From: Candidatus Danuiimicrobium aquiferis
Lineage (GTDB): Bacteria; Omnitrophota; Omnitrophia; Omnitrophales; Danuiimicrobiaceae
Direction of reading: 5' to 3'
NCBI GenBank assembly: GCA_001804285.1
Contig: MHFR01000053.1
Location: 79,857-143,856, forward strand
Length of the DNA stretch: 64,000 nucleotides
In this document: positions 1 through 48,808 of the stretch, one piece after another
How the letters are laid out: each line of letters opens with the position of its first letter
How positions within the stretch are numbered: position 1 is the stretch's first letter
Notes under the pieces: generated by a model
Database searches by the model: none
What the model saw: only the letters and a program-made list of their open reading frames with translations
What the model was told of the DNA's origin: nothing
Program-made: the position numbers and the translations under genes

Positions 1-100
1 CGGATATCAACCATCGCAAACATCACCGTCAGCACGCTTGTATAAATTCCAACGACAAGAAGTCCGAACATCGAAAAAATCGAAAAAACGAACGCACCAA
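1..100 (-). other. Hydrophobic (transmembrane-like) segment of the giant protein at the window edge
   Basis: Translation is KKLGLGAFVFSIFSMFGLLVVGIYTSVLTVMFAMVDI, and the ORF continues beyond position 1. Confidence 0.5.
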
Positions 101-3100
101 GACCTAATTTTTTGCTTGCCAACGCATCTTCCACGCCTTCAAGGTCATTCCGTTTCAATGCCTGCATGAACTTTTTGTTTCTTTTTAGTTTTTCATAGAA
201 TTTTACAATCTCGTCGGGCGTTTTCTCCTCATAGATCCTTTTTTCTGTTTCTTGCCGTAGCCACTCTTCTTCGCGTGTTTCCGATCGTGCATATGTTTGA
301 ATAGTTTCCCGGATTTTTTGGGTACTAAAATCGGGGAAAAGGTCTTTGTCTTTTTGATACTGACTAAATTTTTCGCGCCCAAGTAGCACATTTAAATATT
401 GAATTAAGATTGCTTTCGACCCTGATTCCGTCACACCTCTCAATAAAAGATCCGTGACTAACACCGATTCAACGGATTCTCCCTGTCGAATATCGTTCAG
501 TAATTCATTCAGGATGCCGCGAATATTTCGGTTCGGATCGAAATCCTTATCAACAAGATACCGTTTTTGAAGCGCAAGTTTTTCCGTATCACTCCAATCT
601 GTATATTCACTGTAAATTTGATCGTACGCAAACGGCGATGTAAACATGAGCTGCAGGAAATCATTGACCGTTTCAATAATCAAACCGGCCGTACCCTTAT
701 CGCGATCCGGCATTGCTTTTATTTCCTGCGAAAATGCATCATTTTCTAAAACATGAAACACCTCTTCCATTAACATCCGGTGCGGATGTTGCGCTTTTCT
801 CAATTGTGTGCTCAAAGCAATCATTTTTCCGGTGTCTTCCGGGATCCCCAACACTTCGCGCAATTTTGCGGCGGTGATTCCGGCTTCTTTTGCAATGGCT
901 TCAAAATAATCTTTTGAAACGGTCACGCCCGGCAGAATCACGCCGGCGGCGTTCTTCCAAAACTGCTGATCAGCAAAAGTCAGCGGGGTTTGCGACAATA
1001 ATTTTTCTAAATAGTCTTTCCAGCGCGCTTTCTCGACGCCGCTGATTAAATCGAGAGGAAGTGTTAAGGTCGGAGAAATTAAGATCAAGAATGCCGGGTC
1101 GCCGGGTTTCACATTCTCAACAAGGTAAACAGATTCATTCGCTAATATTGTTTTCAAATCGTTACGGGAAGGAATTCCTTCAATGTCTTTCGTCTCGCCC
1201 AAACCGAACCACGATCCCATTCCCCGCACTTCCGAACGAACCTGTAAAAGAATTTCATTCCGTCTGGCTCTGACAAGAATATCAATCACCCAGTTTTTCT
1301 GAGGTAAACTCCAGTCAACACCGCGCGCTCCTCTGTAAATTCCATCAGCGCGCCTTGCATAAAGAATATCTTCCCGGGCTCTTAGGCTCCTAAGCAGTTT
1401 TGTTAAATTTTCCCGGTCTTTTTCGGCCAAAGATCCGAATCTCAAAGTCCGAATCGCTTCTCGTCTCAATTCTTCGCCGGTCATATTGATTAATTCATAT
1501 CGATACGTTTTTAGGGCCGATCCTGAAAATTCTGCCCTCACTTCGGCCCGGGCAGCAACAGGCGTTTTGATTTCCTCCACAATCCAGCCAACACTTTTCA
1601 CCAAATCTTTGGCTCTTTTAAACAAATCGTGATCCTCGGTAAGTACATTTCTGCCCTCTAAGAAAACTCCAAGATCCCCAACTAACGTTTCAAATTTCAA
1701 TAACTGTTCCGAAAGTTTTTGATGTAATGCCGTGAAATTGATGAGTTTCTCTAAATACGCCGTTTCCTCCGGGCTTAAAGCTCTCAGCTTTTCTTTTTCC
1801 GATATTCCCAGCGTATTAAAAATAGAAAAAATTTTATTAAATTCACCGTATCGAGCTATCCAAATTCGGCGTTCTTTTAAAATCGGATCAAATTCCGAAA
1901 TAAAATCGCGGGCCAGTTGAATGTTTGTTTTGAGATTAGTTAAAAGCTTATTGTCATTATCGTGATTGCCAATACTATGACTGCGAATCAAAGCTAAAAT
2001 GCTGGTCTCCGCTCCATCTATTAAAGTCTTAAATTGATGCATGATGAGTCCCACCATCATCTTCCGGACTTCGGCCGGGGGCATGTCCTGAACCGGCGAC
2101 CGCGCTTCGGCCCTCGATACACGCACTTTGGACCGTATCGAGGACAGGTCGCCCGCTTTGATTGATTCCTGCCCTGGCATTCCAAATTCGAGGCGGGCTT
2201 CCGCACGACTACTTGCCGGTGAAAAAGCGGAGAGTTCCTTGTCATCCAGATACAAGTCATCGCCCTGCGGCGTGGGGGCAACCGACCGCGCCTCGGCCCT
2301 GAATTTTGTGTCATCCCCGTGTACGCGGGGATCCAGCAGCTGCCCGCCAAAGGCGGATCCGCCCTTGGCGGAGATTCCCGCCTTTCCGCCCATCAGGACG
2401 GCGGATTCGCCAGTTTGTTGGGTGGACGCGGGAATGACAGAATCTTCTTCCTCTTCAATTTCTCTGATTTCTTCGAGCGCGGCGAGAATATCATTTTCGT
2501 CTATCAGCTGTTCCGGCATCATTTCATTACCCGTCGCGGCTACCGCTTTCAATGGTTTCGCCCGAACCGGCAGACTGACGTTAGGATCAACGGGACTTCG
2601 GATAATCCCGTCTTCCATAATTTTGACATTGTGAATTTCTTCTACGAAGGCTTGAATCGTTGTTTTAATGTTCCTTGCGGTAAAGTTTTGATCATCCAGT
2701 TTCGCAAAACGGCCGAGAAGATTTTCGAAGTTTTGATCGCGAAGATCGGCCGGACTCATCGCGAGCATCCGCCAAACCAATTTGAATTTTTCGCCGGACG
2801 ATACCTTGACAAGGCCGGGATGAGAAAGCAACCGGTTTAAAAAGTTCTGAAATTCCGTGTGATTATAGCGACGGACAATTTGATCACGGTACTGGCTTGT
2901 GTTTTTCCCGATCTCTTCTTTGATTTTGCTTTGAATCTGTTCAAGTGCTCTTCTCTCAGTCCCTTGTATTTCTCTGATCGTGCCCGAATTCTGATGGACA
3001 AAGGGAATTGTGTATTGATGATTCGGATTTTCATCGGAAAAATATTCCGCAAAATCAACAGCTCCGGCAATTAACTGAAGCCAGCCTGAAAAAAGTGCCT

Positions 3101-6100
3101 TCCATCCGGCATTTTGAAGCGCCGGCTGTCCGGCTTTTACCTGCTTTTCAACTTCATCGCTCCACGCCCCGGAGCGGGACCCCAGTGCCCCGCCCGAAGG
3201 AGTACTTGCCGCAACCGGCGGCAAGTGCGCCTCGCTCGAACGCGGCCCCGGAAGAGGCCTCAGCGCCTCATCTGGCGCAGTGCTCGATTCAACCGGAATC
3301 GAGCGCATTTCGTTCCGTGTCCCGGCAACCGCGACAGGCCTTGAAACACCGCCTGTTAAACGAGCTTCATCAAACAATTCTGTCCGCGTCTGTGCGGCAG
3401 ACTTACGGAATTCCTCCGCTACACGATCCCATAAAATCTGATCGTCAACCGTTTCGGTATCAGAAAAACCAAACCACTGTTTCAAACCGCTTCTCACCGC
3501 TTCATACAATCGAGGGTTTGCTTTTTGGTTGATATCAAATAATTCCTGCAACAACCGGCTTTCCGCCGGACCTGCTTGCGATAATAAATAACCCAAAACA
3601 AGGCCGATATAATGATTTGCAAACCGTTGAAGTCTGACGGGATCATCTGTGTCATGGCGCAAATAAACGCCGTTTTCGATTTCGGTCCTGATATTTTCGA
3701 CTGCGAGTTCCCCGGGACGGTCAAATCCAAACTGAATGGCATGATCAATCTCGCTGTCTGAAAACCCCGGCCGGAACATTTCCCGGATTTCGCTTCGTGT
3801 TCTATCTGCAAGCACACCCAATTCTCCGAAACTTCGGGTACGCCCGATGATATGATAAACGTCGCGGCCCGGAAGAATTTGCGCCAGTCGTCTGACCGCC
3901 TGAATCGCCTGTCTGGCTCCGTCTTTCTGATCAGGCCGAACATAGCCCAGCGCGGTGTCCAAAGACGCATTTCCAAAATTTGTATCGACTGTTCCGTTGG
4001 CCCGCAAATTCATTCCGAAATAAGCTTGAAGTTCCTCAAGCCCGTTCATTTCATCAACATCAGGACGTTCGATAGAAGGCTGATCGGTTTTTCCGCCGGC
4101 ACGGTGATGAATTGATTCGTGGAACTCGGTTTTTTTCATCGGTCTTTCAATCCGGCCACCGGGATGATTAATATTTTGCGTCAAAAATGCGTATGAACCG
4201 ACCGCGCGAAAATAATTTTCCTGAGTCCCGTCTAATGTCTGAATCCGTAAAGGTCCGTATGTACCGGGATCGTTCATGAAACCTTGCGTCGAGCTTGTCT
4301 GGAAAACTCCGTTTTCCCGTAAATATAAAACTGCTTCTGCCGTCAGATGAATGTATCCCGCGTAATGATCGCGGATCCCGTTGGCTTTGAGAAAATCAGC
4401 GCCGATTTCCGGAAATTCGGAAAGTTTTTGGACTCCAATTTCGCATCCTTGGAATACATCGATTTCAGTCTCTGACGGTTCCCGATTTAACATCGTATGC
4501 GCAATAAGCCTGACTCGCTCGCGCGGAGTCATCCGGGAAAGTTGTTTCGAAGCGCGTAGACCGTCTTGATTGATTTTTTTCATCCGGGTCCGGACATTAA
4601 TGGCCTCGCGGACCGTAATTTGCTGGGAAGGAATTTGCGTAGCCGGTTTTGTCTGCAGGGTAGACGATGCCGAAGCTGATTTGGAAGAAGCAGGCGGTGC
4701 GAGGTCGGATGCGGTATGCGTTACGGGAGAAAGGCTCTTGATCGCTTGCGCGAGCGCGGCCGGATCGTTCTTCAGGGCCGGCGTCCGGGCCACAAGCGCC
4801 TGAGCCGCAATTAAAATATTCAAAAATCCATGAATCCGGTCAAGTTCAGCCTGTGTTTGTGCGGACAGAACGCCAAGAGCGCCCGCTTGATCCGAAGCAA
4901 TAATAATAACCAGTTCGCCTGTTTGCGGATGCCTGGCCAATTGATACCGGTAACCGCCCGCTCTCAATTCGTTCCCGGAAACACCATCGATAAAATCCAA
5001 ATCATCAATCATGTCAAATAAAATACCGGCCGCCGCTTGAAGTTCGGCCCTGACCATGTCGGCTCCCAACGGGCCCGCTCCCGGCATCGCCATAATCCGC
5101 GCTTCGGAGCGCTCATCAAGTGGTGTTTGAGCCGCTTGAGGACCAGTTTCCTGTACTTCTGTTAGAACTCTGGCCCGCATCCCAAGACTTACCGCACTTC
5201 CATCAGGAGCGAACTCAAATACGAAATGTCCTTGGCCATCTTTTACCGCTCGGCCTTCCGCTGACCGCTTAATGCCGTAGACAGACTTTACAGCAGAGTC
5301 TATCTTTCTTCCGTCGTCATCAAGCAAGATTAAATCTCTCCCATCAAACTCGTACCGATTACCACTTTCTCCGTCCTCTATTCGATCCCCTTTCTGCAAT
5401 CCTCGAAGCAATTCAATCCCCGATTGGCGGGCTTCTTCTATCGCTTGATTCGCTGCCTGCGTCTTTTTTACGCCTTGCGCAATCAGCTCATCCCTTCGTT
5501 TCGTTGTACGATCATCCCCGTCAAATTGCGCCCCCTGAAGAACGCGCGATGTTCCAGCGCCAGGCACTTCTGAACGACCGCCGGCATCCGCAGGAACCAT
5601 TTCACTATTTGGAAAAACTAAAATCTTGACTGCCTCACTTCCCCAATCCTGCCCTATGCGGGCCGGCATTAATGCCCCATCGGACGGATACCAATTATAA
5701 TAAGGCATAAAAAACATTTTCCCGATACTGAGTTTCCCCAGCACTTGAATATTTTCAGGATGAACTAAGTAATATCCCCCTGGCCGCCCTCTCATCCAAA
5801 CTTTAAATCTCCCGTCGGCTGTGCGTTCAAGTACATACTCTAAATCATGCGTAGAAGAACGAATCAACACCTGGTCACCCGGTTTCAAACTATCAAGATC
5901 AAGTTCGTTGACCTCTCGTCCTTTATTTTCATCAAGCTCGGGAGTTGGCTCCGTCAAACTTCCTCTCGGATGTAACGGATTCTCCGGCTCATCACGCATT
6001 TCCTTCTGAGCGGGCATCGCGGCTACCGAGGATGTCTTGACCGGTGCAACCACATCCGTTTTTGTGGAACCCGGTAAAGGCCCCGCCTTACTCTTGGCCT

Positions 6101-15100: not shown

Positions 15101-18100
15101 GTTCATAAATCCTGACGTATGATGATTCCTGTTGACTATCCATAATCGGAGGATCGAACGGGTTAAGATTCCGCAACTTTTCGAACTGATCGATCCTAAG
15201 CCCGCTGCCCATAAATGCTTCGTTGAAGACCATGACCAATTTCGTGTGTCCTGCAAATTCAATCATTTTATCCGTAAATTGGCGGCGGAATTGTTTGATC
15301 ATCCGTTTGGTCCTGGCCAAATTTTCCTCATCGCCAGGCTGAGTATAATAAAACATCACAAAATCTTTATCGCTCCATGGTACCTGAAACGCATCCTGAG
15401 GCGCTTCTGAGTAATGAAAACGCAAGGGGGCAATGATCCCTGCTTCCACAGCCCGGTCATAGAGGAATTGGCCATCACGATGAAATGCGGGATCGATCTC
15501 CACGGCTGTCACTTCCATGCCGAAAACCACGTGAGCCACCAAAGAAACAATTAAGTTCGGCCCCGAACCCATATCTAACAAATGTTTTCCGCTCAAGTTC
15601 CCGTACCGGTCGGATAATTGTTGAAATGCTTCCTGCAACATGTCAACGGAAGTCGACCCGTAACGGGTTTGATTTGCAGTCAACCGTCCATCTTCCACCA
15701 GCAAAGACATCTTTAAAAGACCTTCGACCGTCCGCATTCGATCTGCCAGCAGCGAATTGGGTGCAGTCACCGAATTTGCAACCTCTCCCACCCTGGGTTC
15801 AGCAGTTCCAGAAATCATCGCCTCTGCGCGGGCTTGAATGGCATCCCGAATCTTCGGCTGATTTAAGAAATGCCGCAGGGTCGGGCCGGCGTTGATATCA
15901 TCAAGCTGGGTAAGAAGCGATTGTTGCGGAACGAAAAAGATTTTCCAGATTTCGCCGCGGCCGGTCGTTTTCCCTGTTTCGTCGGTTTGCTGTTTGTCGA
16001 GACTTTGAAAATGGTTAACTTCACCTTCTGAAAGGGACGCATCCAACGTTTCTTTTGTTTTCTGAATCATGGCAACTTCTTCCGGCGTCGCATGGTAAAT
16101 ATAAATCGTCTTTTTTTCCTGATCCTTCGCTCGAGCTGCGGAAAATTCTCCATCATGACCGATACGTTCCCATTTCCCTTTTAATACGTAGCCCGCTGGG
16201 AAACCCAATTCTTCGACTAATTCTTTCTTGATCGCCTGGTCATAGCGGAAATCCTCGGATACGTGACCGCCATAAATATTTGCTGTGCGCTGCGCCGGAT
16301 CCTTATTTGTACGCTCCAACATGATAAAATTCCCGTCCGGCGTCCGGACAAACGCATTCGCCACCCGATGGAGAAGCTGTTTTCCTTCCGAACCGTCATT
16401 TTTTGCCTTCACCTGAACAACGCCGTTTGGCCCGTAATATAAATGTGCAAGGTTCCGGTCAAGAGAACCGAGAACTTCATCCGCTTGGGTGACGACATCA
16501 ATCATTTCGCCGCTCAATTTAACCTGCCCGGCTTGAATTAAATTCAAAACAGCGTCGACATGAGCCGCAGTCAACGGCGTGTCATTTTTCGGATTGGCTA
16601 TAATTGTTTCTAACTGAACCTTGACTTGTTTAGCCGTCACCCTCGCTTCCGCACGCCCAGCAAAAACAGAATCGGGGACAGGTTCTGGTTTCGTTGATGC
16701 AGAACCTGTCCCCATTATTGAGGCGAGGTTGCGCTGCTTCGCACGCTGGCGGGCAATTTTGAGAACTTCTTTAATTTGCTGATACGGAAGCCCTTTGGTT
16801 TCTGCTTCGATTTTTCGGATCACGGCATCATCCCCGACAAGTGTTTGACGTGCGTCGAGAAATTGTTCATACACGGCCAAACGGTCAAGCAATGTTTGAG
16901 CGGGAAGTTTCTCAAGCTCTTTTGCTTTCGCCTGAATTTCCTCAAATGAAAGCTCTGCGGGTTCCGCCGTTTGTTCGATCACACCTTGCATATCCGGCAC
17001 CAGCGCGAGCGCGGTGGCAAGGTTCGAATTGGAAACGCCGTTGACGCGGCTGACTAAGCTGCCGACGGATTCAGCGTCGATTTTGCCGCTTTTCCACATG
17101 TCTTTGAGGCCCTCTCCAAGGACTTCAATCTTTTTCGACATGAGCGCTTTCAGCTTACCGAAATAATTTGAATTGAAGGATTTGAGTTCCCGTTCGAGGG
17201 CTTGACGGAGGTCGTTGTCATTCCCGCGAAAGCGGGAATCCAGAGACTGTAGATCCCCGATTAAAGCATTCGGGGATGACAAAGAACCCTGCCCCGCGTC
17301 TCCTGCCCCTCCCTCCTGTTCCTTCCTCAATATCTGCACAAGCGCGTCCACATATCTTGTGTAAGAACCGGCTTCGGTCACTCGCCCTTCGGCGATGGAA
17401 TTCTGGATAATCCGGTCGCGCCAGCGTTTGAGGCTGGGTGTGAGTTCTTCGGTTTTAAGAGACGCGGCCATTTTCGCGGCATAATCTTTTGCGAGCGCGT
17501 CCCAGAGGCTTCCTTTGAAATATTTCATATAGGACATATTGCCGCGCATGACATTCATGTAATTCTCTTTCGTCCCGATCTCGCTGATTTTGGGCGCGAT
17601 GAGCGCGTAAGAAATACCGGCTGATTTCATTTTTTCTTTGATGCCTTCCGAATGGAAACCGCCGGTAACGATCACCGCGATCTTCGCGTTTTGACGGTCC
17701 ATGGTTTTAATAACGTTTTGGAAAAGCACTTCGTCACGCTCGAGCGCAAGTTCGTAGAAGCGGAAGTGCGGCTGGAAAAGAGTTACGAGGTCACTGGACA
17801 CTACGTCACTCGTCACTGGTGTAAAAAAAGGCGGGTGCTGTAACGCAAAAATAGTTTTGGGGTTTTTGTCATCCCCGTGCAAACGGGGATCCAGCCGGAT
17901 TCCCGCTTTCGCGGGAATGACAGAATAACCTCTTCGCAATGACGCACTATCTTTTTCCGGTGACTGGTGACCGGCGACTAGTGGCTTCACCTCTTTCCAC
18001 TGTTCATGCGTAATTTCCAGTTTCGCGAAATCGCGGAAAAGTTCCAAATCATAGAAACCGGAAACCAGTTCTTTCTCCTCTGCCGTTTTCGGAAGGAATT

Positions 18101-19778
18101 CTCTCAATTCTTTTTCGAGCGCTTCAAGTTCGTCAAACAACTTCGTCCCTTTAATCGAAGAAAGTGTCCGCGCATGTTTCGCCGTCGGTTTTAAAATATC
18201 CGGGATATACGCATCGAATCCGTATTTCCTCGATAGCTCCTCAACGCGGTCAACGAGCGCGCCTTGTTTGATCTGCCCGATTTTATACATTTGAATCATT
18301 TGGCCGGTCGTGATTTGTTCGGCTTTCGGAAGTTTCGGAAGGATTTTCGTCTCAAATCCGCGGATAAAATAATTCATCGCCACGTCAAAACCTTCGTCTT
18401 GAAAACGTTTTTCGTTTTCTTCGGCAGTCAGGATCTTGGAAAGTTCGGGATAGGCAGTAGAAAAACCCCTTACATCTCCTCCCCCTTTGTGGGGGAGTCC
18501 TCCTAACATCCGCCAAAATACGCGTCGGACTCGCCGCGCTGTTTGGCGAGAATTGGCGGATCCGCCATCCTGTTGGGCGGAGACTAAGGTGGGGGGTAAT
18601 GTCCTATTATCACCCCCATCCTTTCCTTCCCCCATCAAGGGAGAAGGAAACCTCAAAGAAAAGGGGACAGGTTCTGGTTCAATGGAGTCAAAACCTGTCC
18701 CCTTTTCTGCCTTCCATAACCGCTCCAGGCCTTTCGCATATGTCATCAAATCGATTTCGTCTGTTTTGAATTTTTTTTGGGAATGAATGAATTCCACAAT
18801 TGGGTTGGCCTGTAAAACCCCCTCACCCCAACCCTCTCCCCGAGGGAGAGGGTTAGGGTGAGGGTGAGGGCCTTTTCCCTTTTGATTTTTTTCTTCTAAT
18901 CTTTTCTCCAATTCCGCTTCCACCCTGTCCAGTTCCCTTAAAATCTCCGGCTCGTTCCTGGACGCTTCCAAGAACGCTTTCTTGTTTTCCTCGTATAGCT
19001 TCTTCTCCTCGATTCCGTAATAGCTCGAGTCAAATTCTTCATTAAGAATAGATGCCATTTCACCGCCGGAAAGTTCACCGCGCCCGACATATTCTTTCAC
19101 TACTTTCTGTTTTAATTCCTGATCGGGAAATGATTTGAAATAAAGGCTGTCCAATCGGCCGGCACCGCCTTCGAGGAGCGTAGGGGCGGGTTTGAAACCC
19201 GCCCCTACAAGCAGTTTCTGGATTTCCCGGATGATTTTCGAAATATTCGTTTCCGAATCATAATTCGTATGCGCATCCTGGAGGTAGAGGATGAGTTTTG
19301 GGGCATCGACAATAGACACTGGGACACTGGTCCCTGGTATGTCCCCGCTTGCTGTCATTCCCGCATGCTTCAGGTGGGAATCTATGCGTCTGGATGAAGA
19401 AAAGGGGACAGGTTCTGGTTCAATGGAGTCAGAACCTGTCCCCTTTTCTTTCTCTGATGACTGGTGACTGATGACTGACGACTTCTTTCCCGGCACAAAC
19501 GATTCCACAAGACTGCCGAGCTCTTCAGGAAGGCTGAGTGAATCAATGATTTCTCGAGGATTCACTTCCTTAATCCCGTGGCGAGGGTAGGCGCCTTCAA
19601 GAAGAGACTCGGCATAAACTGAACGACTCGGAGTAAATGTAAAATTGGTAAGGGTAAAGGTAATGACAAGAATAATGGCAATCAAGCGACGGCAAATCAG
19701 TATACTTTTATCTGATGTATTGGCCACGGGATTTCCTTTAAAACTGTTTACAACAGTTTGTAAAAGTATACATGGCAT
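1..19778 (-). CDS. Giant multidomain secreted/membrane-associated protein. The 5' start is in the window and the 3' end lies beyond position 1. About 6,590 codons are inside the window.
   Basis: Reverse-complement translation in the frame of ATG 19776-19778 shows no stop codon down to position 3. An alternative GTG start at 19725-19727 is preceded by AAGGAAA. The track has no minus-strand Met-ORF fragments in this frame. Recognisable catalytic motifs are spread over the whole length, all in this frame. The gene is absent from the ORF track because it runs off the window edge. Confidence 0.8.
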   Translation of the reverse strand, partial: MPCILLQTVVNSFKGNPVANTSDKSILICRRLIAIILVITFTLTNFTFTPSRSVYAESLLEGAYPRHGIKEVNPREIIDSLSLPEELGSLVESFVPGKKSSVISHQSSEKEKGTGSDSIEPEPVPFSSSRRIDSHLKHAGMTASGDIPGTSVPVSIVDAPKLILYLQDAHTNYDSETNISKIIREIQKLLVGAGFKPAPTLLEGGAGRLDSLYFKSFPDQELKQKVVKEYVGRGELSGGEMASILNEEFDSSYYGIEEKKLYEENKKAFLEASRNEPEILRELDRVEAELEKRLEEKNQKGKGPHPHPNPLPRGEGWGEGVLQANPIVEFIHSQKKFKTDEIDLMTYAKGLERLWKAEKGTGFDSIEPEPVPFSLRFPSPLMGEGKDGGDNRTLPPTLVSAQQDGGSANSRQTARRVRRVFWRMLGGLPHKGGGDVRGFSTAYPELSKILTAEENEKRFQDEGFDVAMNYFIRGFETKILPKLPKAEQITTGQMIQMYKIGQIKQGALVDRVEELSRKYGFDAYIPDILKPTAKHARTLSSIKGTKLFDELEALEKELREFLPKTAEEKELVSGFYDLELFRDFAKLEITHEQWKEVKPLVAGHQSPEKDSASLRRGYSVIPAKAGIRLDPRLHGDDKNPKTIFALQHPPFFTPVTSDVVSSDLVTLFQPHFRFYELALERDEVLFQNVIKTMDRQNAKIAVIVTGGFHSEGIKEKMKSAGISYALIAPKISEIGTKENYMNVMRGNMSYMKYFKGSLWDALAKDYAAKMAASLKTEELTPSLKRWRDRIIQNSIAEGRVTEAGSYTRYVDALVQILRKEQEGGAGDAGQGSLSSPNALIGDLQSLDSRFRGNDNDLRQALERELKSFNSNYFGKLKALMSKKIEVLGEGLKDMWKSGKIDAESVGSLVSRVNGVSNSNLATALALVPDMQGVIEQTAEPAELSFEEIQAKAKELEKLPAQTLLDRLAVYEQFLDARQTLVGDDAVIRKIEAETKGLPYQQIKEVLKIARQRAKQRNLASIMGTGSASTKPEPVPDSVFAGRAEARVTAKQVKVQLETIIANPKNDTPLTAAHVDAVLNLIQAGQVKLSGEMIDVVTQADEVLGSLDRNLAHLYYGPNGVVQVKAKNDGSEGKQLLHRVANAFVRTPDGNFIMLERTNKDPAQRTANIYGGHVSEDFRYDQAIKKELVEELGFPAGYVLKGKWERIGHDGEFSAARAKDQEKKTIYIYHATPEEVAMIQKTKETLDASLSEGEVNHFQSLDKQQTDETGKTTGRGEIWKIFFVPQQSLLTQLDDINAGPTLRHFLNQPKIRDAIQARAEAMISGTAEPRVGEVANSVTAPNSLLADRMRTVEGLLKMSLLVEDGRLTANQTRYGSTSVDMLQEAFQQLSDRYGNLSGKHLLDMGSGPNLIVSLVAHVVFGMEVTAVEIDPAFHRDGQFLYDRAVEAGIIAPLRFHYSEAPQDAFQVPWSDKDFVMFYYTQPGDEENLARTKRMIKQFRRQFTDKMIEFAGHTKLVMVFNEAFMGSGLRIDQFEKLRNLNPFDPPIMDSQQESSYVRIYEPASADTKTAAIAARTEARADLAAFARGIQTLLVAPETPERMEILKMVAVEAPDAANPIGTGENRMIDMLLASSPDTAEDLLRRTFSFTESGQQVLKQEKTVQALYDLLFNQLNLLEIDGDQISLSVNGQSILKNKNRVLKRLEIAAALAEEEKQSNPAAVLAAQILNEVHFILEDASLSLLPAFENDTNEIQFIDHNSDIVDGNFSAAPAAENFYCRAIQKLPRSEFRSEQRFEKNNSQANLIKTTGAPSLTDLTAQPRTEARTSDQGGWKIGEVDNQFLFDRVNDFLGFERDRLKGLRPNTFVDYIETPSGELVGAHRYEYAVDPKKPEHVIAKGQIHSARSFPIELAGRSTTVANELAIRFLERFVTMGLTEVQINSVTEQGRKLWRYHTARVVSSIDTVDGKKLYTMVINLDEWQKKQTSRSELREGQVQQTARSESRTTVAESPSIIVTPKDRFKQLIDTLVPETERDQYKNAALRANEVRLREIIEYMSWPQRDFTHRLSHIWKAATNMRYFGFEKKALSPEDRARYEELKPKGAQAIDYGRMLLQTISSVNTETHFQPEYIDDLIVLIEVTKQAIREAEQFGEAVLTLMKKYQIQSEENDQLYIDWTERALDETKRFADTLERLETGQRLPQEEELNILLNWARREPYVRMTWEIGLDSGLAVMDLDVLLTNLIQNARDAKKAGQDDFEIQISATFELSEEGKQSIRLVAKDNGKGMSADVLRQIRSGIPLTTKGALGRGQGLQNVRAVIGKYNGVLEIDSGEVINPETGKKEKSTTFAISIPVKIPAIAPFKLVEGAETRATEAVRSEARNLESGSHQVLIGTRESTLADKMLAKRAEVRNSVIPAKAGIQLDPHFRGDDINASETEAPVPADYPLNIQNVTQANQLAEEGKLEAARDLYDQILKNSQLFGIESADVLSRLRARLDELVRLVGEKDSLSDQTPGVTWQGRLSPLHRDMIARVEELRRQQGKSKNDLLVIADYGIGKKGAPTTFDLARSLRDSGYGNVVMIGFDNNRQYIDSARKQLSKETLPGIQMEFALADAFHVNEGLKNAGRADLVGKVDMVIVANVLIDGIYTKYYTAEDAKKAIPRLGQILSENGFVVRATGPMERDVSKKVEYQLYDSNGTEIANGISYPDRELDAKVAELVKEIQTLQQDRLDEFQKKLDYFLKAYFSGGQQIDRRAQILNALKEKFGQALSGISPAIMAALSSAESGSQGALKTMSDSRLAERMTVAQVAADQMIDRIKKANEADLISIEAELRELVKEGGALRGEEANDQKAEILRALVEKFGDQLSEIAPAIEDILTSCSSCAVDYAKRAQELKDRAAAGENVATEAREVAENLKSEIGAALAAGLSLPQMGIETSGVLDQLIAGYLALDGIEGLDVKLKTELQTQLTALRTQMAREKAAQLERIFANIEKIADRQATKTRGENWDWPGAEAKYKELIEYYQSTGRGEDAARVERKLKGLRAHVQLEILLNTYNTMPVDELAKELESLVQIATNMEDEYRNQLMRAIDFLSGRNKTVYHVSGIDKSKIVEGGEIVIYPGVANAFGEGVYASQVPLLSYDGGEGLQLPTGDIIVFSFEINPDAEKHIGADPNAIYVNVHTNEHAIRLKNLKLREVSADELKKIGAIGMENARKNGKKVYLVEAEEVKFDSGYQTSGDYERFMAENEIIKELNELEADKDEATYDEMVRKIAERGLSDSNRIKAVLEKVFSAEIAAREMLERIRQAEESDLPELEAELGLLVGARGELRGEKHNDLKAQILNEMIERFGSRLTDVAPAIAEILTSCSSCAVNYANRASDLAKRAGQGEDVHGEVLDIAQSLKTEIEAALKAGLTLSQMGIQNLNMFGQLERGYQALMTLLDGDKDFILRAALDDQLSQLIDMPEHDRYMAPRLKGRSPQEREIGRPMKDIEQDLEKRNWYWHGLTDEAKDEVRGRIEIIRERLPAFLRKKIGHKILAINVKGSYIWGPGTIAGFDHYNAQDMDILIIVEDNIEESVDIHLTDEEKREIFGDSDWQTGKLEIKVMGAGKAKPSAQFNNEMNRMISAKHSGVLLFGEDYFENISTQNFALKKLFDLLGAALIEYGKFLSARLSEKDGALLAQYRQLKIEYADLYEESKTQIEQVISALEARMKAQRLAHLRIMKRLFEIGLAAEFLVRTLTPERLAQFRKATDFGPHRFAPHLAGVTLSQFLTKGVPESVFEHAQELEELIVEDPGQIMDSFLAMYLNALKDYVGDQTADQATQGIIGKIEHSDELSRSEVRAELSALVSEGGPLHGAERNDYKAKILEALLRKFGSQLNEIAPEIVAILTSCSACAVDYAKRAQALKDRAAAGENVQKEAVDVGRNLRDEIDAALTAGLNLEQMGIENADMFGQLIAGYEALPSLIPADEDPNLKAALQEQSDRLREMFREVLPAAPATQTAGRRSEVRKTGEEIAVPSTEKFAEGTRQPAEKRQIPKKQPRMVVHGDVHGELDGLKEDLRQAGLIDENGNWIGGDAVFVQVGDVIDRGPKSKEAIEFLRRLKRQAQQAGGDVVRLIGNHELMLLEGMLGDDDALFMWWRNLPTEQRAVFEEFRDDPQRFRAAIREVYGEIVDQMLEDIMNDHLKAAEQLHGEVFTHAGARSKIRKQLIKEIAQKLGIDPSQVTEKQIADHINEILKQAISGKNFSHAIFGEDGIFWNRGVMDSVDAGKMRQIFGHTPEADSPVVASPNASRVNVDVGLYERYGGGRGFLEIDSDGNLVAHRKNQAGEWEKESLGNKDGGVEEKSSTAEATKTAEVVLPLASQNRTQSNPETARKMERMLEGLLAAALALQGKTVSEGDLRDIEKLLNELQQQTIEANDPQVAFAWAVINFIRVAQSRGDLTDVREQLHSASNRVAGRYAKKIEEILSAFSSGESISAEYNDLAAKVADDLMSNIQDISLSDFDGYLYVMKHQDLTIWGTLAKIFQVIIKALEKYPEPSKAFGTTMAEQRKILEAIRRELVKKLADQAKSKAGPLPGSTKTDVVAPVKTSSVAAMPAQKEMRDEPENPLHPRGSLTEPTPELDENKGREVNELDLDSLKPGDQVLIRSSTHDLEYVLERTADGRFKVWMRGRPGGYYLVHPENIQVLGKLSIGKMFFMPYYNWYPSDGALMPARIGQDWGSEAVKILVFPNSEMVPADAGGRSEVPGAGTSRVLQGAQFDGDDRTTKRRDELIAQGVKKTQAANQAIEEARQSGIELLRGLQKGDRIEDGESGNRYEFDGRDLILLDDDGRKIDSAVKSVYGIKRSAEGRAVKDGQGHFVFEFAPDGSAVSLGMRARVLTEVQETGPQAAQTPLDERSEARIMAMPGAGPLGADMVRAELQAAAGILFDMIDDLDFIDGVSGNELRAGGYRYQLARHPQTGELVIIIASDQAGALGVLSAQTQAELDRIHGFLNILIAAQALVARTPALKNDPAALAQAIKSLSPVTHTASDLAPPASSKSASASSTLQTKPATQIPSQQITVREAINVRTRMKKINQDGLRASKQLSRMTPRERVRLIAHTMLNREPSETEIDVFQGCEIGVQKLSEFPEIGADFLKANGIRDHYAGYIHLTAEAVLYLRENGVFQTSSTQGFMNDPGTYGPLRIQTLDGTQENYFRAVGSYAFLTQNINHPGGRIERPMKKTEFHESIHHRAGGKTDQPSIERPDVDEMNGLEELQAYFGMNLRANGTVDTNFGNASLDTALGYVRPDQKDGARQAIQAVRRLAQILPGRDVYHIIGRTRSFGELGVLADRTRSEIREMFRPGFSDSEIDHAIQFGFDRPGELAVENIRTEIENGVYLRHDTDDPVRLQRFANHYIGLVLGYLLSQAGPAESRLLQELFDINQKANPRLYEAVRSGLKQWFGFSDTETVDDQILWDRVAEEFRKSAAQTRTELFDEARLTGGVSRPVAVAGTRNEMRSIPVESSTAPDEALRPLPGPRSSEAHLPPVAASTPSGGALGSRSGAWSDEVEKQVKAGQPALQNAGWKALFSGWLQLIAGAVDFAEYFSDENPNHQYTIPFVHQNSGTIREIQGTERRALEQIQSKIKEEIGKNTSQYRDQIVRRYNHTEFQNFLNRLLSHPGLVKVSSGEKFKLVWRMLAMSPADLRDQNFENLLGRFAKLDDQNFTARNIKTTIQAFVEEIHNVKIMEDGIIRSPVDPNVSLPVRAKPLKAVAATGNEMMPEQLIDENDILAALEEIREIEEEEDSVIPASTQQTGESAVLMGGKAGISAKGGSAFGGQLLDPRVHGDDTKFRAEARSVAPTPQGDDLYLDDKELSAFSPASSRAEARLEFGMPGQESIKAGDLSSIRSKVRVSRAEARSPVQDMPPAEVRKMMVGLIMHQFKTLIDGAETSILALIRSHSIGNHDNDNKLLTNLKTNIQLARDFISEFDPILKERRIWIARYGEFNKIFSIFNTLGISEKEKLRALSPEETAYLEKLINFTALHQKLSEQLLKFETLVGDLGVFLEGRNVLTEDHDLFKRAKDLVKSVGWIVEEIKTPVAARAEVRAEFSGSALKTYRYELINMTGEELRREAIRTLRFGSLAEKDRENLTKLLRSLRAREDILYARRADGIYRGARGVDWSLPQKNWVIDILVRARRNEILLQVRSEVRGMGSWFGLGETKDIEGIPSRNDLKTILANESVYLVENVKPGDPAFLILISPTLTLPLDLISGVEKARWKDYLEKLLSQTPLTFADQQFWKNAAGVILPGVTVSKDYFEAIAKEAGITAAKLREVLGIPEDTGKMIALSTQLRKAQHPHRMLMEEVFHVLENDAFSQEIKAMPDRDKGTAGLIIETVNDFLQLMFTSPFAYDQIYSEYTDWSDTEKLALQKRYLVDKDFDPNRNIRGILNELLNDIRQGESVESVLVTDLLLRGVTESGSKAILIQYLNVLLGREKFSQYQKDKDLFPDFSTQKIRETIQTYARSETREEEWLRQETEKRIYEEKTPDEIVKFYEKLKRNKKFMQALKRNDLEGVEDALASKKLGLGAFVFSIFSMFGLLVVGIYTSVLTVMFAMVDI
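2309..2443. repeat. Composite MITE-like palindromic element inside the giant ORF (GTCATCCCCGTG..CGGGGATC + GGCGGATCCGCC...TTGTTGGGTGGA + CGCGGGAATGAC)
   Basis: Terminal inverted repeats GTCATCCCCG / CGGGAATGAC. It translates in-frame as ...DSVIPASTQQTGESAVLMGGKAGISAKGGSAFGGQLLDPRVHGDD. Confidence 0.75.
6850..7690 (-). other. PPP-family (calcineurin-like) Ser/Thr metallophosphatase domain (giant protein)
   Basis: MVVHGDVHGELDGL...VFVQVGDVIDRGPKS...VRLIGNHELMLL gives the GDxHG, GDxxDRG and GNHE signature triad. Later IFGHTP resembles the conserved His region. Confidence 0.75.
7925..8310 (-). repeat. Intragenic protein-module repeat, copy C (ELSALVSEGGPLHGAERNDYKAKILEALLRKFGSQLNEIAPEIVAILTSCSACAVDYAKRAQALKDRAAAGENV...MGIENADMFGQLIAGYEAL)
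   Basis: About 85 percent nucleotide identity to copies at 9497..9870 and 10950..11320. For example, 8058..8170 and 11088..11200 are nearly identical. Confidence 0.8.
8950..9300 (-). other. Pol-beta-like nucleotidyltransferase domain (giant protein)
   Basis: ILAINVKGSYIWGPGTIAGFDHYNAQDMDILIIVED matches the GS...[DE]xD minimal NTase motif, with a helical region after it. Confidence 0.5.
9497..9870 (-). repeat. Intragenic protein-module repeat, copy B (...KAQILNEMIERFGSRLTDVAPAIAEILTSCSSCAVNYANRA...)
   Basis: Same module with the conserved LTSCSSCAV and MGI..L..GY motifs. Confidence 0.8.
10950..11320 (-). repeat. Intragenic protein-module repeat, copy A (...KAEILRALVEKFGDQLSEIAPAIEDILTSCSSCAVDYAKRAQELKDRAAAGENV...)
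   Basis: Same module as copies B and C. Confidence 0.8.
11330..11560 (-). repeat. Partial, Cys-less copy of the same module (RRAQILNALKEKFGQALSGISPAIMAALSSAES...)
   Basis: Matches the first half of the module. TSCSSC is replaced by LSSAES. Confidence 0.5.
11750..12170 (-). other. Second Rossmann/MTase-like domain (giant protein)
   Basis: DLLVIADYGIGKKGAPTTFDLARSLRDSGYGNVVMIGFDNN...ADLVGKVDMVIVANVL resembles a glycine-rich loop, an acidic beta2 end and a hydrophobic beta4. Confidence 0.35.
12501..12556. repeat. MITE-like element (GTCATCCCCACGAAAGTGGGGATC-CAACTGG-ATTCCCGCCTTCGCGGGAATGAC) in-frame in the giant ORF
   Basis: Two hairpins flanked by GTCAT/ATGAC. It translates as SVIPAKAGIQLDPHFRGDD. 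Confidence 0.8.
12740..13100 (-). other. GHKL / HATPase_c (histidine-kinase-like ATPase) domain (giant protein)
   Basis: N-box LDVLLTNLIQNARDA, G1 box VAKDNGKGM, G2-like GALGRGQGLQNV, and a C-terminal TTFAISIPV strand. Confidence 0.65.
13450..13620 (-). other. Possible DHp/H-box-like segment upstream of the HATPase domain
   Basis: Segment REIIEYMSWPQRDFTHRLSHIWKAATNMRYF contains a His in a helical context about 150 aa before the N-box. It diverges from the canonical H-E-L-R-x-P-L. Confidence 0.25.
15200..15660 (-). other. Class I SAM-dependent methyltransferase-like domain (giant protein)
   Basis: Motif I-like HLLDMGSGPNLIVSLVAHVVFGMEVTAVEIDP is followed by an acidic residue at the end of beta2 and a hydrophobic beta4 region (DFVMFYY). 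Confidence 0.5.
16070..16400 (-). other. NUDIX hydrolase-like domain (giant protein)
   Basis: Translation is QLLHRVANAFVRTPDGNFIMLERT...GGHVSEDFRYDQAIKKELVEELGFPAGY. KELVEELGF fits the Nudix box REuxEExGu with R->K, and the spacing to the upstream G is near consensus. Confidence 0.5.
16660..16720. repeat. Degenerate copy of the GGGGACAGGTTCTG...CAGAACCTGTCCCC element in-frame in the giant ORF
   Basis: Sequence is cGGGGACAGGTTCTGGTTTCGTTGATGCAGAACCTGTCCCCa, translating as IMGTGSASTKPEPVPDS. Confidence 0.6.
17217..17280. repeat. MITE-like element (GTCATTCCCGCGAAAGCGGGAATCCAGAG...ATCCCCGATTAAAGCATTCGGGGATGAC) in-frame in the giant ORF
   Basis: Same family as 12501..12556. Confidence 0.8.
17868..17923. 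repeat. MITE-like element (GTCATCCCCGTGCAAACGGGGATCCAGCCGGATTCCCGCTTTCGCGGGAATGAC) in-frame in the giant ORF
   Basis: Same family. It translates as SVIPAKAGIRLDPRLHGDD. Confidence 0.8.
18470..18875. repeat. Cluster of at least five different palindromic elements, all in-frame inside the giant ORF: CCCCC-TTTGTGGGGG; GGCGGATCCGCC...TTGGGCGGAG; CCTTCCCCCATCAAGGGAGAAGG; GGGGACAGGTTCTGG...AAACCTGTCCCC at 18656..18708; CCTCACCCCAACCCTCTCCCCGAGGGAGAGGGTTAGGGTGAGGG at 18828..18870
   Basis: Each has a paralog elsewhere in the window (26735..26830, 21178..21350, 25056..25102, 25592..25686). The encoded peptide is low-complexity: ...GKGPHPHPNPLPRGEGWGEG...AEKGTGFDSIEPEPVPFSLRFPSPLMGEGKDGGDN... Confidence 0.8.
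19354..19447. repeat. GTCATTCCCGCATGCTTCAGGTGGGAATC element plus a GGGGACAGGTTCTGGTTCAATGGAGTCAGAACCTGTCCCC element, in-frame near the 5' end of the giant ORF
   Basis: It translates as ...SEKEKGTGSDSIEPEPVPFSSSRRIDSHLKHAGMTA. Confidence 0.75.
19600..19727 (-). other. N-terminal signal peptide or signal anchor of the giant protein
   Basis: From the GTG start the protein begins MANTSDKSILICRRLIAIILVITFTLTNFTFTPSRSVYA/ES. This is a basic n-region, a ~20-residue hydrophobic core and a VYA-E cleavage-like site. Confidence 0.5.
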
Positions 19779-23907: not shown

Positions 23908-23975
23908 GTCATTCCCGCGAAAGCGGGAATCCAGAGAAAATGCTGGATGCCCGCTTGAAGCGTGCGGGCATGACA
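23908..23975. repeat. MITE-like element GTCATTCCCGCGAAAGCGGGAATCCAGAG...GGATGCCCGCTTGAAGCGTGCGGGCATGACAC immediately upstream of polX
   Basis: Same family as 17217..17280. Confidence 0.75.
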
Positions 23976-25055: not shown

Positions 25056-25102
25056 AAAAGGGGACAGGTTCTGGTTAATGGAGTCAGAACCTGTCCCCTT
25101 TT
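25056..25102. repeat. GGGGACAGGTTCTGGTTAATGGAGTCAGAACCTGTCCCC element, flanked upstream by GTGC(A/T)C(A/T)AG-type arms
   Basis: Near-identical to 19399..19447. Confidence 0.8.
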
Positions 25103-32254: not shown

Positions 32255-32392
32255 TGTTTAGCGTTCTGAAGTGGCGAACACGCCAAGTTCGTGTCATGCC
32301 CGCATGCTTAAAGCGGGCATCCACAGTTTCTGGAAAAAGGGGACAGGTTCTGATCCTATTAAGTCAGAACCTGTCCCCTTTTTATATCGGGT
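32255..32392. repeat. 75-nt repeat TTTAGCGTTCTGAAGTGGCGAACACGCCAAGTTCGTGTCATGCCCGCATGCTTAAAGCGGGCATCCACAGTTTCTGGA, plus a GGGGACAGGTTCTGATCCTATTAAGTCAGAACCTGTCCCC element
   Basis: The 75-nt unit is almost identical to 53596..53675. Confidence 0.8.
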
Positions 32393-34092: not shown

Positions 34093-34285
34093 TCCCGCAT
34101 GCTTTCCCTCGGTAAATCGAGGGCCGGCCCTGTATTTCCAGGGAGGCGGGAATCTCTATTTATAAATCCCCGCCAAGAACATGCAGGGATCTCCGCCACA
34201 AATCATTGGCGGATCCGTCCGCGCTGTATGGCGGAAAATTCGCGCATTCAACTTACGTTCCATAAGTTGAGCGCTCATTTGACTT
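34088..34285. repeat. Block of GTCATTCCCGCATGC...GCGGGAATC, GGCGGATCCG, and TTCGCGCATTCAACTTACG...ATAAGTTGAGCGCTCATTTGACTTT elements
   Basis: Matches 26824..26893 and the other family members. Confidence 0.7.
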
Positions 34286-34672
34286 TTTCATCATCCTTTA
34301 ATCACACCGATTGGCCGCATCCGGACGACACGTTTTGCAATACCGGCCTCATTTACAACTTCGACCACATCGCTGACATCTTTATAGGCCAGCATTTTGA
34401 TTCAGATCAAATTGACTTGAATTAAATCTTACCATAGCCGAATCGTTGACTCATAATAGACCTTGCCGAAACCCGGAGGGAGTTTTACATGCGTCCAACT
34501 TCAAAAAATACAGTAATGCCTTAATTAAGTATTGTGTCCCAAGTATCATACATTACACAACTAATGACTGATAAGATTTCTCTTTCAATGCTATCGGTAG
34601 AATAATAGAATGTGAATTGTAAATTAAAAGATTGCTTTAATATCCCATAAAGAAAATTAGCCTTAGGAATCA

Positions 34673-36463: not shown

Positions 36464-36524
36464 CAATGGCATTCCGAAGAAAATTATAACTTTGAATAGA
36501 CTCTCTCCATGAAAAGGAATTCTT

Positions 36525-37652: not shown

Positions 37653-37708
37653 TTTCCAATTGGCATTAAGTATAACTGTTAAATTTAACGATAAAATATT
37701 TTAGAATT

Positions 37709-39673: not shown

Positions 39674-39742
39674 TTTTGGTTTGGTGAAACAAATTGGCTT
39701 GTTCTAAAGCATTTTTTTTGTATTAATTAAAAGGAAAACACC

Positions 39743-41134: not shown

Positions 41135-41139
41135 GCAAC

Positions 41140-42060: not shown

Positions 42061-42104
42061 CTATACCCTTTTCCTCTATCCTCTCAATATTTGCTGCAAG
42101 TTTT

Positions 42105-44354: not shown

Positions 44355-44383
44355 GCAAAGCGAAATATCAAAAGGCTTTTGAA

Positions 44384-48776: not shown

Positions 48777-48808
48777 GGTTTTATTCCTTTATTTCTTATG
48801 CCTAATAA

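Follow-up and report, generated by a model that had tools for sequence, protein, structure and literature searches.

What becomes of the product of a 28-kb bacterial gene, and does it work as one polypeptide or is it cut up? The function and processing of giant genes are a recognized puzzle of the phylum Omnitrophota, in most classes of which open reading frames (ORFs) of >20 kb occur that are poorly conserved and carry few annotated domains (Seymour et al. 2023). One such gene begins in a 64,000-nucleotide (nt) stretch of Candidatus Danuiimicrobium aquiferis (GenBank assembly GCA_001804285.1, contig MHFR01000053.1, positions 79,857 to 143,856), hereafter called the window. At 28 kb it is rather small for a giant; several assemblies reproduce it, and its architecture is clean. 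We propose, with a probability of about 0.55, that its product is an exported, membrane-tethered enzyme array acting at the host-cell interface.

The window's GreA, Nth, and PolX have identical counterparts in Omnitrophica bacterium RIFCSPLOWO2_12_FULL_44_17 and RIFCSPHIGHO2_02_FULL_45_28, which UniRef names Ca. Danuiimicrobium aquiferis (taxid 1801832, phylum Omnitrophota). QueG synteny did not inform taxonomy, its matches having only ∼34% identity and falling in unrelated phyla. The gene is therefore encoded in an Omnitrophota genome; the source metagenome-assembled genomes (MAGs) represent an uncultivated bacterium of Rifle aquifer groundwater. A first-pass annotation, made from the letters of the window alone, had likened the gene to giants reported from uncultivated lineages, and it does belong to a phylum for which the class is already published.

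Translation of the reverse complement from ATG 19778-19776 gave 6,592 codons and zero stops, in agreement with the single minus-strand frame read by hand in the first-pass annotation. No stop has been reached at base 3 of the window, and the frame extends past the left edge; the same annotation had correctly proposed that the ORF list lacks the giant because its frame runs off that edge. From base composition, the chance of 6,592 stop-free codons is ∼1e-165. The remaining five frames of 1..19778 contain 218 to 397 stops each, with longest open runs of 85 to 205 codons, and the runner-up open frame in the 64-kb window has 708 codons. Codon frequencies of the giant ORF correlate with those of neighboring genes at r = 0.94, compared with only 0.38 and 0.32 for the two shifted frames. 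GC content by codon position (∼0.58/0.39/0.46) is even along the length and was judged equal to that of neighboring genes (0.54/0.37/0.46).

A stop codon lies two codons 5' of ATG 19778-19776, which had been taken as the start. Because a Shine-Dalgarno-like site precedes GTG 19727-19725 and none is found at the ATG, and because the gene callers of the ENA contigs start at 19727, this GTG, 17 codons inside the ATG, is probably the true start. The two corresponding features are as follows.

3..19778, minus strand: in-window part of the giant ORF, 6,592 stop-free codons (6,575 counted from the likely GTG start)
19725..19738, minus strand: likely translation start, AAGGAA (19738-19733), 6-nt spacer, and GTG (19727-19725), from the Shine-Dalgarno-like site and the gene callers' start

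The complete product is called as 9,320 amino acids (aa; 27.96 kb) on two ENA contigs, so that, from GTG 19727, the window covers 6,575 of the 9,320 codons. The single ORF, open for 19.7 kb in the window, thus exceeds by its gene calls the 20 kb that defines giant ORFs in Seymour et al. 2023. By exact look-up of the window's GreA and endonuclease III on public contigs, we located the locus in four other assemblies: GCA_001804245.1 (MHFP01000017.1), an ENA re-assembly of the same project, and the ENA samples ERZ4903125 and ERZ4903137. Identity to the window was 99.84 to 100% for the fetched loci as a whole and at least 99.98% for the first 8.4 kb (5' end) of the giant gene. In the ENA re-assembly, the giant gene call stops at the contig end (5,199 aa); in ERZ4903125 and ERZ4903137, the gene lies well within contigs of 98.8 and 49.4 kb, and both calls are of 9,320 aa. 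It occupies roughly 45.7-73.7 kb of contig k141_3601312 in the former sample and 4.3-32.3 kb of k141_2702823 in the latter. Downstream of QueG, where ∼22.7 kb of the giant ORF is expected, the NCBI gene list of MHFP01000017.1 shows no such call, and the gene seems to be absent from public NCBI annotation.

Because no orthologues were available, selection was assessed by comparing paralogous modules of the protein, the CxxC modules described below. Their synonymous differences (pS, 0.68 to 0.80) are near saturation, and the module duplication is therefore old; nonsynonymous differences are 0.33 to 0.37, and the resulting dN/dS of 0.19 to 0.28 indicates purifying selection on the protein sequence. 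Judged by its sequence, the ORF is a genuine gene of ∼28 kb that is predicted to be translated.

Export signals, enzyme domains, and module borders

Domain, motif, and topology analyses cover the in-window residues, and features are numbered from ATG 19778 (6,592 aa), which places the signal-peptide-like region at aa 18-56. By hydropathy, the whole in-window protein has only two hydrophobic segments, and the ∼6,500 residues between the N terminus and aa 6560 contain nothing comparable.

19611..19727, minus strand: signal-peptide-like N terminus (aa 18-56) with basic n-region (K, RR), 17-residue core LIAIILVITFTLTNFTF, then SVYA/ES, the slash marking the putative cleavage site; hand assessment, hydropathy peak 2.23
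45..101, minus strand: transmembrane-type hydrophobic segment LGAFVFSIFSMFGLLVVGI (aa 6560-6578) by the window edge, hydropathy 2.37

By manual assessment, the protein thus has the signal peptide plus later transmembrane segment (SP+TM) that characterizes one topology of class 1 in Nielsen & Lui 2026, and the signal peptide proposed at first pass is borne out as a signal-peptide-like pattern. The cysteine content is extremely low, with 10 in 6,592 residues (0.15% versus 1.32% in neighbors; p = 1e-25); two of these are in or before the signal peptide, and six form three CxxC pairs. Exported proteins encoded elsewhere in the window, the secretin among them, are likewise Cys-poor, and the large relatives identified below are nearly Cys-free (0 to 0.17%), one of them, P0006, having a clear signal peptide. 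This depletion supports export of the giant protein.

Only three domains pass curated Pfam thresholds (Nudix, HATPase_c, and Metallophos/PPP), and ∼85% of the in-window protein matches nothing known. No family dominates: NUDIX, HATPase_c, Metallophos, and a marginal Methyltransf_31 occur in one copy each. The assigned and unassigned regions are listed from the N terminus.

16656..19610, minus strand: N-terminal region without recognizable domain (aa 57-1041), no family match, five in-frame hairpin elements inside
16038..16373, minus strand: Nudix hydrolase domain (aa 1136-1247), PF00293, E = 4.3e-7, 30.4 bits against a cutoff of 21.1
15099..15611, minus strand: putative class I methyltransferase 1 (aa ∼1390-1560), motifs LLDMGSGPN ... 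VTAVEID only
12729..13091, minus strand: GHKL/histidine-kinase-type ATPase domain (aa 2230-2350), PF02518, E = 3.8e-11, with matches to sensor-kinase ATPase domains
11733..12107, minus strand: marginal methyltransferase 2 (aa 2558-2682), PF13847, E = 3.3e-4, 20.8 bits, under the 27-bit cutoff
6789..7673, minus strand: PPP-family (Shewanella-like) phosphatase domain (aa 4036 to ∼4330), PF00149, E = 5e-9, 37.3 bits against 21.5
4107..4121, minus strand: HESIH (HExxH) motif (aa 5220-5224), possible zinc-protease site by motif only, no family match

The Nudix box retains its core, KELVEELGF at nt 16200-16226 (R to K), and deviates in its upstream G-x5-E part (GGHVSEDF); with a score above the gathering threshold and this box core, the domain is predicted to be a member of the Nudix hydrolases. 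In the GHKL domain the N-box (LTNLIQNARDA), G1 (DNGKGM), and G2 (GRGQGL) are intact, and no HisKA-type domain was matched in aa 2001-2229 with Pfam and NCBIfam-type libraries, so that it does not qualify as a histidine kinase. The phosphatase has the motifs of the PPP family, GDVHG (aa 4040), GDVIDRG (aa 4076), and GNHE (aa 4111), and among PDB entries it is matched best by the cold-active phosphatase of Shewanella (1v73/2z72; E = 5e-14). Methyltransferase 1 had no Pfam, NCBIfam, or PDB match.

The stretches that had served as catalytic anchors of the frame at first pass correspond to real features: the Nudix domain for 16070-16400 (Pfam, nt 16038-16373), HATPase_c for 12740-13100 (nt 12729-13091), the phosphatase for 6850-7690 (its GDVHG, GDVIDRG, and GNHE lie at nt 7437-7661), the KGSYIWG...DMD segment of family 2 below for 8950-9300, and, within 15200-15660, LLDMGSGPN. 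Of the modules then named, Nudix, GHKL ATPase, and PPP phosphatase stand above Pfam thresholds, the second methyltransferase is marginal (20.8 versus 27 bits), and the first methyltransferase and the Pol-beta nucleotidyltransferase are recognizable by motif only. The general picture of unrelated modules, low-complexity linkers, and a triplicated Cys module, now with a partial fourth copy, in place of Ig/cadherin repeats has held: library scans of the in-window protein detected no Ig, cadherin, FN3, discoidin, laminin-G, dockerin, or beta-helix repeats, and the giant has no tandem repeats. PADLOC defense-system models matched none of ten slices.

Two further candidate assignments gained no support. 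A TraB/ChaN/TIKI-like domain at aa 160-715 had no match in any library. The HExxH at aa 5220 was considered as a protease; the related proteins P0007 and P0008 also have HExxH, but by BLAST the segments are not homologous. A search with the final 1,200 in-window residues matched only a self-fragment and no homologue; P0001, the sole database fragment of the giant (aa 5491-6246), is 99% identical to it. Six substitutions in P0001 cluster at giant aa 5612-5619 (window ∼2922-2945; LEQ.QS.I to IKK.KR.K), which on this comparison is a small, charge-changing patch that appears to vary between strains.

The middle of the protein is built from copies of a helical module and two uncharacterized families. 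A HMMER search with aa 2791-3990 against 1.84 billion representatives returned relatives for two segments, families 1 and 2, and, for the CxxC module, no homologue beyond the self-fragment.

11379..11711, minus strand: partial, degenerate fourth copy of the helical module (aa 2690-2800), SAES in place of CxxC, from paralogue comparison
10824..11426, minus strand: helical CxxC module copy A (aa 2785-2985; CSSC at nt 11145-11156), from paralogue comparison; model with eight helices and a predicted local distance difference test (pLDDT) score of 80.5
9930..10541, minus strand: uncharacterized family 1 (aa 3080-3283; YHVSG...PGVANAFGEGVYASQ.PLL.Y.GGEG), common to large Omnitrophota and small stand-alone proteins
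9369..9983, minus strand: helical CxxC module copy B (aa 3266-3470; CSSC at nt 9690-9701), from paralogue comparison
8457..9344, minus strand: uncharacterized family 2, nucleotidyltransferase-like by motif (aa 3479-3774; NWYW...KGSYIWG...DMD...[DE]xK), from family alignment
7764..8351, minus strand: helical CxxC module copy C (aa 3810-4005; CSAC at nt 8115-8126), from paralogue comparison

Fold searches with the CxxC module model gave generic helical-repeat matches only, with a predicted HEAT-like resemblance; as modeled, the module is a helical scaffold private to this protein. Neither family had a Pfam match or a PDB sequence by profile, and family 2 had none in NCBIfam either. Family 1 occurs in three large proteins of 1,606 to 2,476 aa, one of them from another Omnitrophota MAG, and in small proteins, one from a Patescibacteria MAG; reading its YHVS...GVYAS as a PARP-like ADP-ribosyltransferase found no support in Pfam (ten members) or PDB profile searches. 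Across 11 members of family 2, the D.D that follows KGSY.WG is invariant, as is a G; an acidic [DE]xK strand is conserved, and the GS is not invariant. A single-sequence AlphaFold2 (AF2) model of family 2 reached pLDDT 42, too low for fold assignment. Its stand-alone members (P0014, P0016-P0019, P0021, P0023, P0027, and P0029) have ∼300 to 430 aa, and eight of the nine start with a hydrophobic, signal-like segment. Two paralogues, P0014/P0028 and P0016, each have 23,007 bp as the longest contig on record and may share one JGI contig. Family 2 is thus predicted to be an uncharacterized, mostly exported protein family, one without a Pfam model.

Two of the relatives have a common C-terminal segment of ∼58 aa (P0006 aa 2419-2476 and P0007 aa 1541-1598; 55% identity), with the consensus GGIDL.P....L.TQ..GG.I.F..D.AML..LQNA.GF.PVV..I.P..DL..FLG; it may be a sorting or anchoring signal.

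A short motif recurs along the giant protein. R-[STA]-E-[AVSILT]-R has 17 copies, compared with 0.2 expected from shuffles, and R.E.R ranks first among 48,000 three-residue patterns in a five-residue span (21 versus 2.5 expected; Bonferroni p = 2e-8), the remaining top patterns of this unbiased count all stemming from the Cys module. The Arg, Ser, Ala, and Glu codons of the motif vary between copies; conservation is therefore at the protein level, and an origin at the DNA level was rejected. No R-[STA]-E-x-R occurs in the 12,866 residues of 35 other window ORFs. None of the 17 sites is within a recognized catalytic domain. Their flanks are linker-like, being enriched in P/S/T/A/G/Q (46% versus 36%); set against random positions, they also show a greater propensity to disorder (TOP-IDP, p = 0.014) and lower hydrophobicity (p = 0.012). 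All copies below are from the pattern count.

16641..16655, minus strand: junction motif RAEAR (aa 1042)
15048..15062, minus strand: junction motif RTEAR (aa 1573)
14313..14327, minus strand: junction motif RTEAR (aa 1818)
13818..13832, minus strand: junction motif RSELR (aa 1983)
13779..13793, minus strand: junction motif RSESR (aa 1996)
12651..12665, minus strand: junction motif RSEAR (aa 2372)
12561..12575, minus strand: junction motif RAEVR (aa 2402)
8277..8291, minus strand: motif RSEVR (aa 3830), N-terminal edge of module C
7773..7787, minus strand: junction motif RSEVR (aa 3998), between module C and the PPP domain
5097..5111, minus strand: junction motif RSEAR (aa 4890)
3783..3797, minus strand: motif RSEIR (aa 5328)
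2286..2300, minus strand: junction motif RAEAR (aa 5827)
2193..2207, minus strand: junction motif RAEAR (aa 5858)
2100..2114, minus strand: junction motif RAEAR (aa 5889)
1536..1550, minus strand: junction motif RAEVR (aa 6077)
1224..1238, minus strand: junction motif RSEVR (aa 6181)
273..287, minus strand: motif RSETR (aa 6498)

The unbiased pattern test also found enriched motifs in two relatives: G.R.A in P0005 (7 versus 0.31 expected; Bonferroni p = 2e-3) and D.AM in P0006 (6 versus 0.22; Bonferroni p = 7e-3), both of them recurring at borders of modules. In P0013, GARLA at 558, 973, and 1387 flanks both family 2 repeats, and the sole long block of homology between P0006 and P0007 starts and stops at their motifs.

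Where the giant protein would act

In the reading that we prefer, an N-terminal Sec-type signal peptide would start export across the cytoplasmic membrane, the long middle part would be exported, and the downstream membrane segment would keep it tethered as a cell-surface or periplasmic enzyme array. Since Omnitrophota are considered dependent on hosts, this array would most likely act on host or prey molecules at the contact site, or have its modules delivered there. The helical modules would serve as spacers or docking scaffolds ahead of each enzyme. The gene would have grown by module duplication and shuffling, and its linkers tolerate in-frame insertion of the genome's dispersed hairpin elements.

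Several observations weigh against this reading. Nudix, GHKL, methyltransferase, and nucleotidyltransferase domains require nucleotides or S-adenosylmethionine (SAM), neither of which is expected once a protein has left the cytoplasm, a point in favor of a protein that is either cytoplasmic or delivered into another cell. Topology was read by hand from hydropathy and charge, and topology predictions are described as unreliable for such giant proteins (West-Roberts et al. 2023, bioRxiv 10.1101/2023.11.21.568195). The in-window part has no glycoside hydrolase, glycosyltransferase, or adhesin domain by which it could be tied to the cell-wall-degradation model of the literature, and it shows no protease domain either, the HExxH at aa 5220 being just a motif. 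The part analyzed ends 2,745 residues before the C terminus.

The cofactor requirement is most easily accommodated if the protein is a membrane-anchored scaffold on the cytoplasmic face, a regulatory or metabolic mega-enzyme whose N-terminal segment is an uncleaved anchor, or is oriented otherwise than read here, and whose R-x-E-x-R is a structural linker or docking site. Every recognized enzyme is of a typical cytoplasmic, nucleotide-dependent type, and ATP, SAM, and nucleotides are available on that face; moreover, Nielsen & Lui 2026 find the methyltransferase/HATPase_c module compatible with cytoplasmic-face anchoring (the TM-only half of their catalogue), and West-Roberts et al. 2023 call some extracellular predictions "highly unlikely." We nevertheless consider this explanation, the most serious of the rivals, unlikely. 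K24, R30, and R31 precede the hydrophobic core and the small-x-small site VYA/ES follows it, as in an N-in, cleavable signal peptide; the extreme Cys depletion resembles that of the window's exported proteins; and stand-alone family 2 relatives have signal-peptide-like N termini. In the PDB, the phosphatase domain is closest to Shewanella-like PPP phosphatases. Intact catalytic motifs in the PPP (GDxHG, GDxxDRG, GNHE), GHKL (N, G1, G2), and Nudix (core) domains, together with the lack of tandem repeats and of all the adhesin-type repeats searched for, make it improbable that the product is mainly a structural coat or adhesin for host attachment with degenerate, noncatalytic binding domains, even though ∼85% of the sequence has no recognizable domain, the helical modules resemble HEAT-like repeat scaffolds, and adhesion or coat roles have been proposed in the literature for other Omnitrophota giants. 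An artifact, whether a repeat-mediated misassembly or a decaying pseudogene not made as one product, is barely credible. The gene does contain dispersed repeats, assemblies do break at them (contig L004 at 23908), MHFP01000017.1 lacks a gene call at NCBI, and the cross-assembly comparison spans only the 5' 8.4 kb; yet a stop-free run of this length in a chimera has a chance of ∼1e-165, coding statistics are even over the whole length, the frame crosses seven repeat elements without a stop, two independent samples yield the same complete 9,320-aa call, and the paralogous modules are under purifying selection.

A more speculative extension of the exported array is that R-[S/A/T]-E-[A/V]-R, which marks module borders in linker-like sequence, may be a recognition or cleavage site at which a polyprotein is split into modules. 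In its full form, the motif would be a processing code by which an exported 9,320-aa precursor, a secreted polyprotein, is cut into ∼15 separate enzymes and scaffolds, and the relatives would have their own lineage-specific codes (GAR[LM]A, D-x-A-M) co-evolving with a dedicated protease. We regard this proposal as doubtful. The RSEVR at aa 3830 is possibly fortuitous because it is not conserved in module copies A and B, spacing is uneven (13 to 1,428 aa), and the 1,428-aa stretch holds five modules with no motif inside. For three of five relatives (P0007, P0008, and P0013), the unbiased test gave no significant motif, and the relatives' motifs had been noticed by eye before that test. West-Roberts et al. 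2023 (bioRxiv 10.1101/2023.11.21.568195) state that cleavage points in giants are unknown and speculate on proteolytic processing; neither they nor Nielsen & Lui 2026 mention such junction motifs. If true, the code would supply the missing cleavage points and a rule for dividing Omnitrophota giants into functional units.

A statistically unambiguous motif at module borders, with counterparts in two relatives, makes the processing of giants an experimentally answerable question and offers a rational way of dividing them before their structures are predicted. With Nudix, PPP phosphatase, GHKL, and nucleotidyltransferase-like modules, the enzyme set is unlike the carbohydrate-centered sets behind the cell-wall-digestion argument, a hint that nucleotide or phosphate chemistry may be what some giants manipulate where they meet the host. 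Should all these readings fail, the giant is one more member of a published class.

Hairpin elements and gene neighborhood

Seven hairpin elements lie within the giant gene, all in frame and all stop-free. Family b (GGGACAGGTTCTG-loop-CAGAACCTGTCCC) has eight copies in the 64 kb (17 half-sites versus 0.5 expected), of which three are in frame in the giant gene, one is inside the QueG ORF, and the others are intergenic or at 5' edges of ORFs. Family a has the form GGATTCCCGC-NNN-GCGGGAATGACA, is often coupled with a TGTCATCCCCG...CGGGGATCC hairpin, and is translated in the giant as VIPAKAGIQLDPRxxGDD or LDSRFRGNDN. The copies found by repeat search, listed without strand, are as follows.

19397..19449: family b, in frame (hairpin 19405-19442), peptide GTGSDSIEPEPVPF
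18656..18708: family b, in frame (hairpin 18664-18701)
17863..17926: double hairpin of family a, in frame, peptide VIPAKAGIRLDPRLHGDD
17212..17244: family a, in frame, peptide LDSRFRGNDN
16667..16719: family b, in frame, diverged copy (hairpin 16675-16712)
12496..12559: double hairpin of family a, in frame, peptide VIPAKAGIQLDPHFRGDD
2305..2337: family a, in frame, diverged, peptide LLDPRVHGDD
20720-20757, 25061-25097, 28428-28465, 32340-32377, and 33971-34008: family b, outside the giant gene
23908-23932 and 53672-53696: family a, outside the giant gene

The peptides PHPNPLPRGEGWGEGV (giant aa 304-321) and SPHPNPLP (QueG N terminus) suggest a third hairpin family. An Rfam gathering scan of the whole window, hairpin elements included, found no known RNA family. 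The ENA contig k141_3974396 (L004) stops at window position 23910, inside the element 23908-23932; such repeats therefore break short-read assemblies, which may explain the frequent truncation of giant genes in genomes of this kind.

The neighboring genes are ordinary chromosomal ones: QueG, Nth, PolX, GreA, an MqnC-like radical-SAM enzyme, IspG, NadA, and ThiC, and further a polysaccharide gene cluster, RlmN, CorA, and MalQ. At 27 kb from the giant gene lies a putative secretion cluster.

46495-57515, minus strand: type II secretion/type IV pilus-like cluster with a pseudopilin bearing an N-methylation motif, GspF, GspE with MshEN, a secretin, a PilM-like protein, and several unannotated ORFs

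Its proximity is one of the points in favor of export, and West-Roberts et al. 2023 (bioRxiv 10.1101/2023.11.21.568195) describe clusters of this kind close to giant genes. The stretch 34000-46000 has a GC content of 0.36 to 0.39, compared with 0.44 to 0.50 elsewhere in the window, and encodes on the plus strand polysaccharide-type functions (ABC exporter, asparagine synthase, GT4 and GT2 glycosyltransferases, DUF354, a second GT2, and a TPR protein); horizontal transfer may have brought it in as an island. The ORF 32398-34092 has a hairpin element in its 5' part, a start that varies by gene caller (548 or 564 aa), and the domain DUF1570 (PF07607), which we take to be a Planctomycetes-associated family.

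Comparison with known systems

Vibrio MARTX toxins carry several effector domains that are freed by an internal cysteine protease domain. As a working analogy, the giant would likewise be a very large exported protein with unrelated enzyme modules in series, perhaps released by cleavage between modules; it differs in having no sequence similarity, no Pfam or NCBIfam match to RTX repeats or a cysteine protease domain in its in-window part, and no type I secretion genes among 30 neighbors. Rickettsia palindromic elements, which Ogata and colleagues are said to have described in 2000, are reportedly short palindromic repeats in frame within protein genes. The hairpins resemble these elements as dispersed DNA that is both intergenic and in frame in coding sequence, where it adds short peptides, and differ from them in sequence and phylum and in forming two or three families, mostly in the linkers of one giant gene, with one copy in QueG.

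The closest parallels are within Omnitrophota. The Archaeovorins (West-Roberts et al. 2023, bioRxiv 10.1101/2023.11.21.568195; survey threshold, >30,000 aa), with a type protein of 39,678 aa from Velamenicoccus archaeovorus LiM, combine methyltransferase, NUDIX, HATPase_c, HEAT, glycosyltransferase (GT), and glycoside hydrolase (GH) domains with many TM helices, SecA_DEAD, and C39/S8 peptidases and have type II secretion genes nearby. The present gene shares with them the phylum, one very long ORF, a domain-free N-terminal region beside a signal peptide, the methyltransferase (here marginal and at motif level), Nudix, and HATPase_c domains, helical modules that are HEAT-like by predicted fold resemblance, a membrane segment toward the C terminus, secretion/pilus genes nearby, and a divergent, mostly unannotatable sequence. 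In contrast to the Archaeovorins, it is three to nine times shorter (9,320 versus >30,000 aa) and so falls below their length threshold. Its 6,592 aa have no GT, GH, HEAT, or TPR Pfam match (E ≤ 1), aa 1-1046 contain no C39/S8 or other peptidase family, and the in-window part has two hydrophobic segments rather than dozens and no SecA_DEAD, which in the Archaeovorin follows the C-terminal TM anchors. Its enzyme set points to nucleotide/phosphate rather than carbohydrate chemistry.

Nielsen & Lui 2026 (bioRxiv 10.64898/2026.06.07.730766; catalogue threshold, at least 10,000 aa) define a multi-enzyme class 1 with a methyltransferase/HATPase_c module 1, and report SP+TM topology in 39% of long proteins and singletons as 80% of sequence clusters. 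The giant agrees with class 1 in its many tiled Pfam families, module 1 content (methyltransferase and HATPase_c), Nudix domain, signal peptide with later TM segment, and status as a sequence singleton. It departs from class 1 in its 9,320 aa, just under the threshold, in its origin from a 2016 Rifle aquifer MAG outside their collection, and in a junction motif, CxxC helical module, and in-frame hairpins that are not described there. SP+TM multi-enzyme giants with methyltransferase, HATPase_c, and Nudix domains are thus already described in Omnitrophota, and this gene fits that picture; to it we add a junction motif with lineage-specific counterparts, a private CxxC module, two uncharacterized families, and in-frame hairpins.

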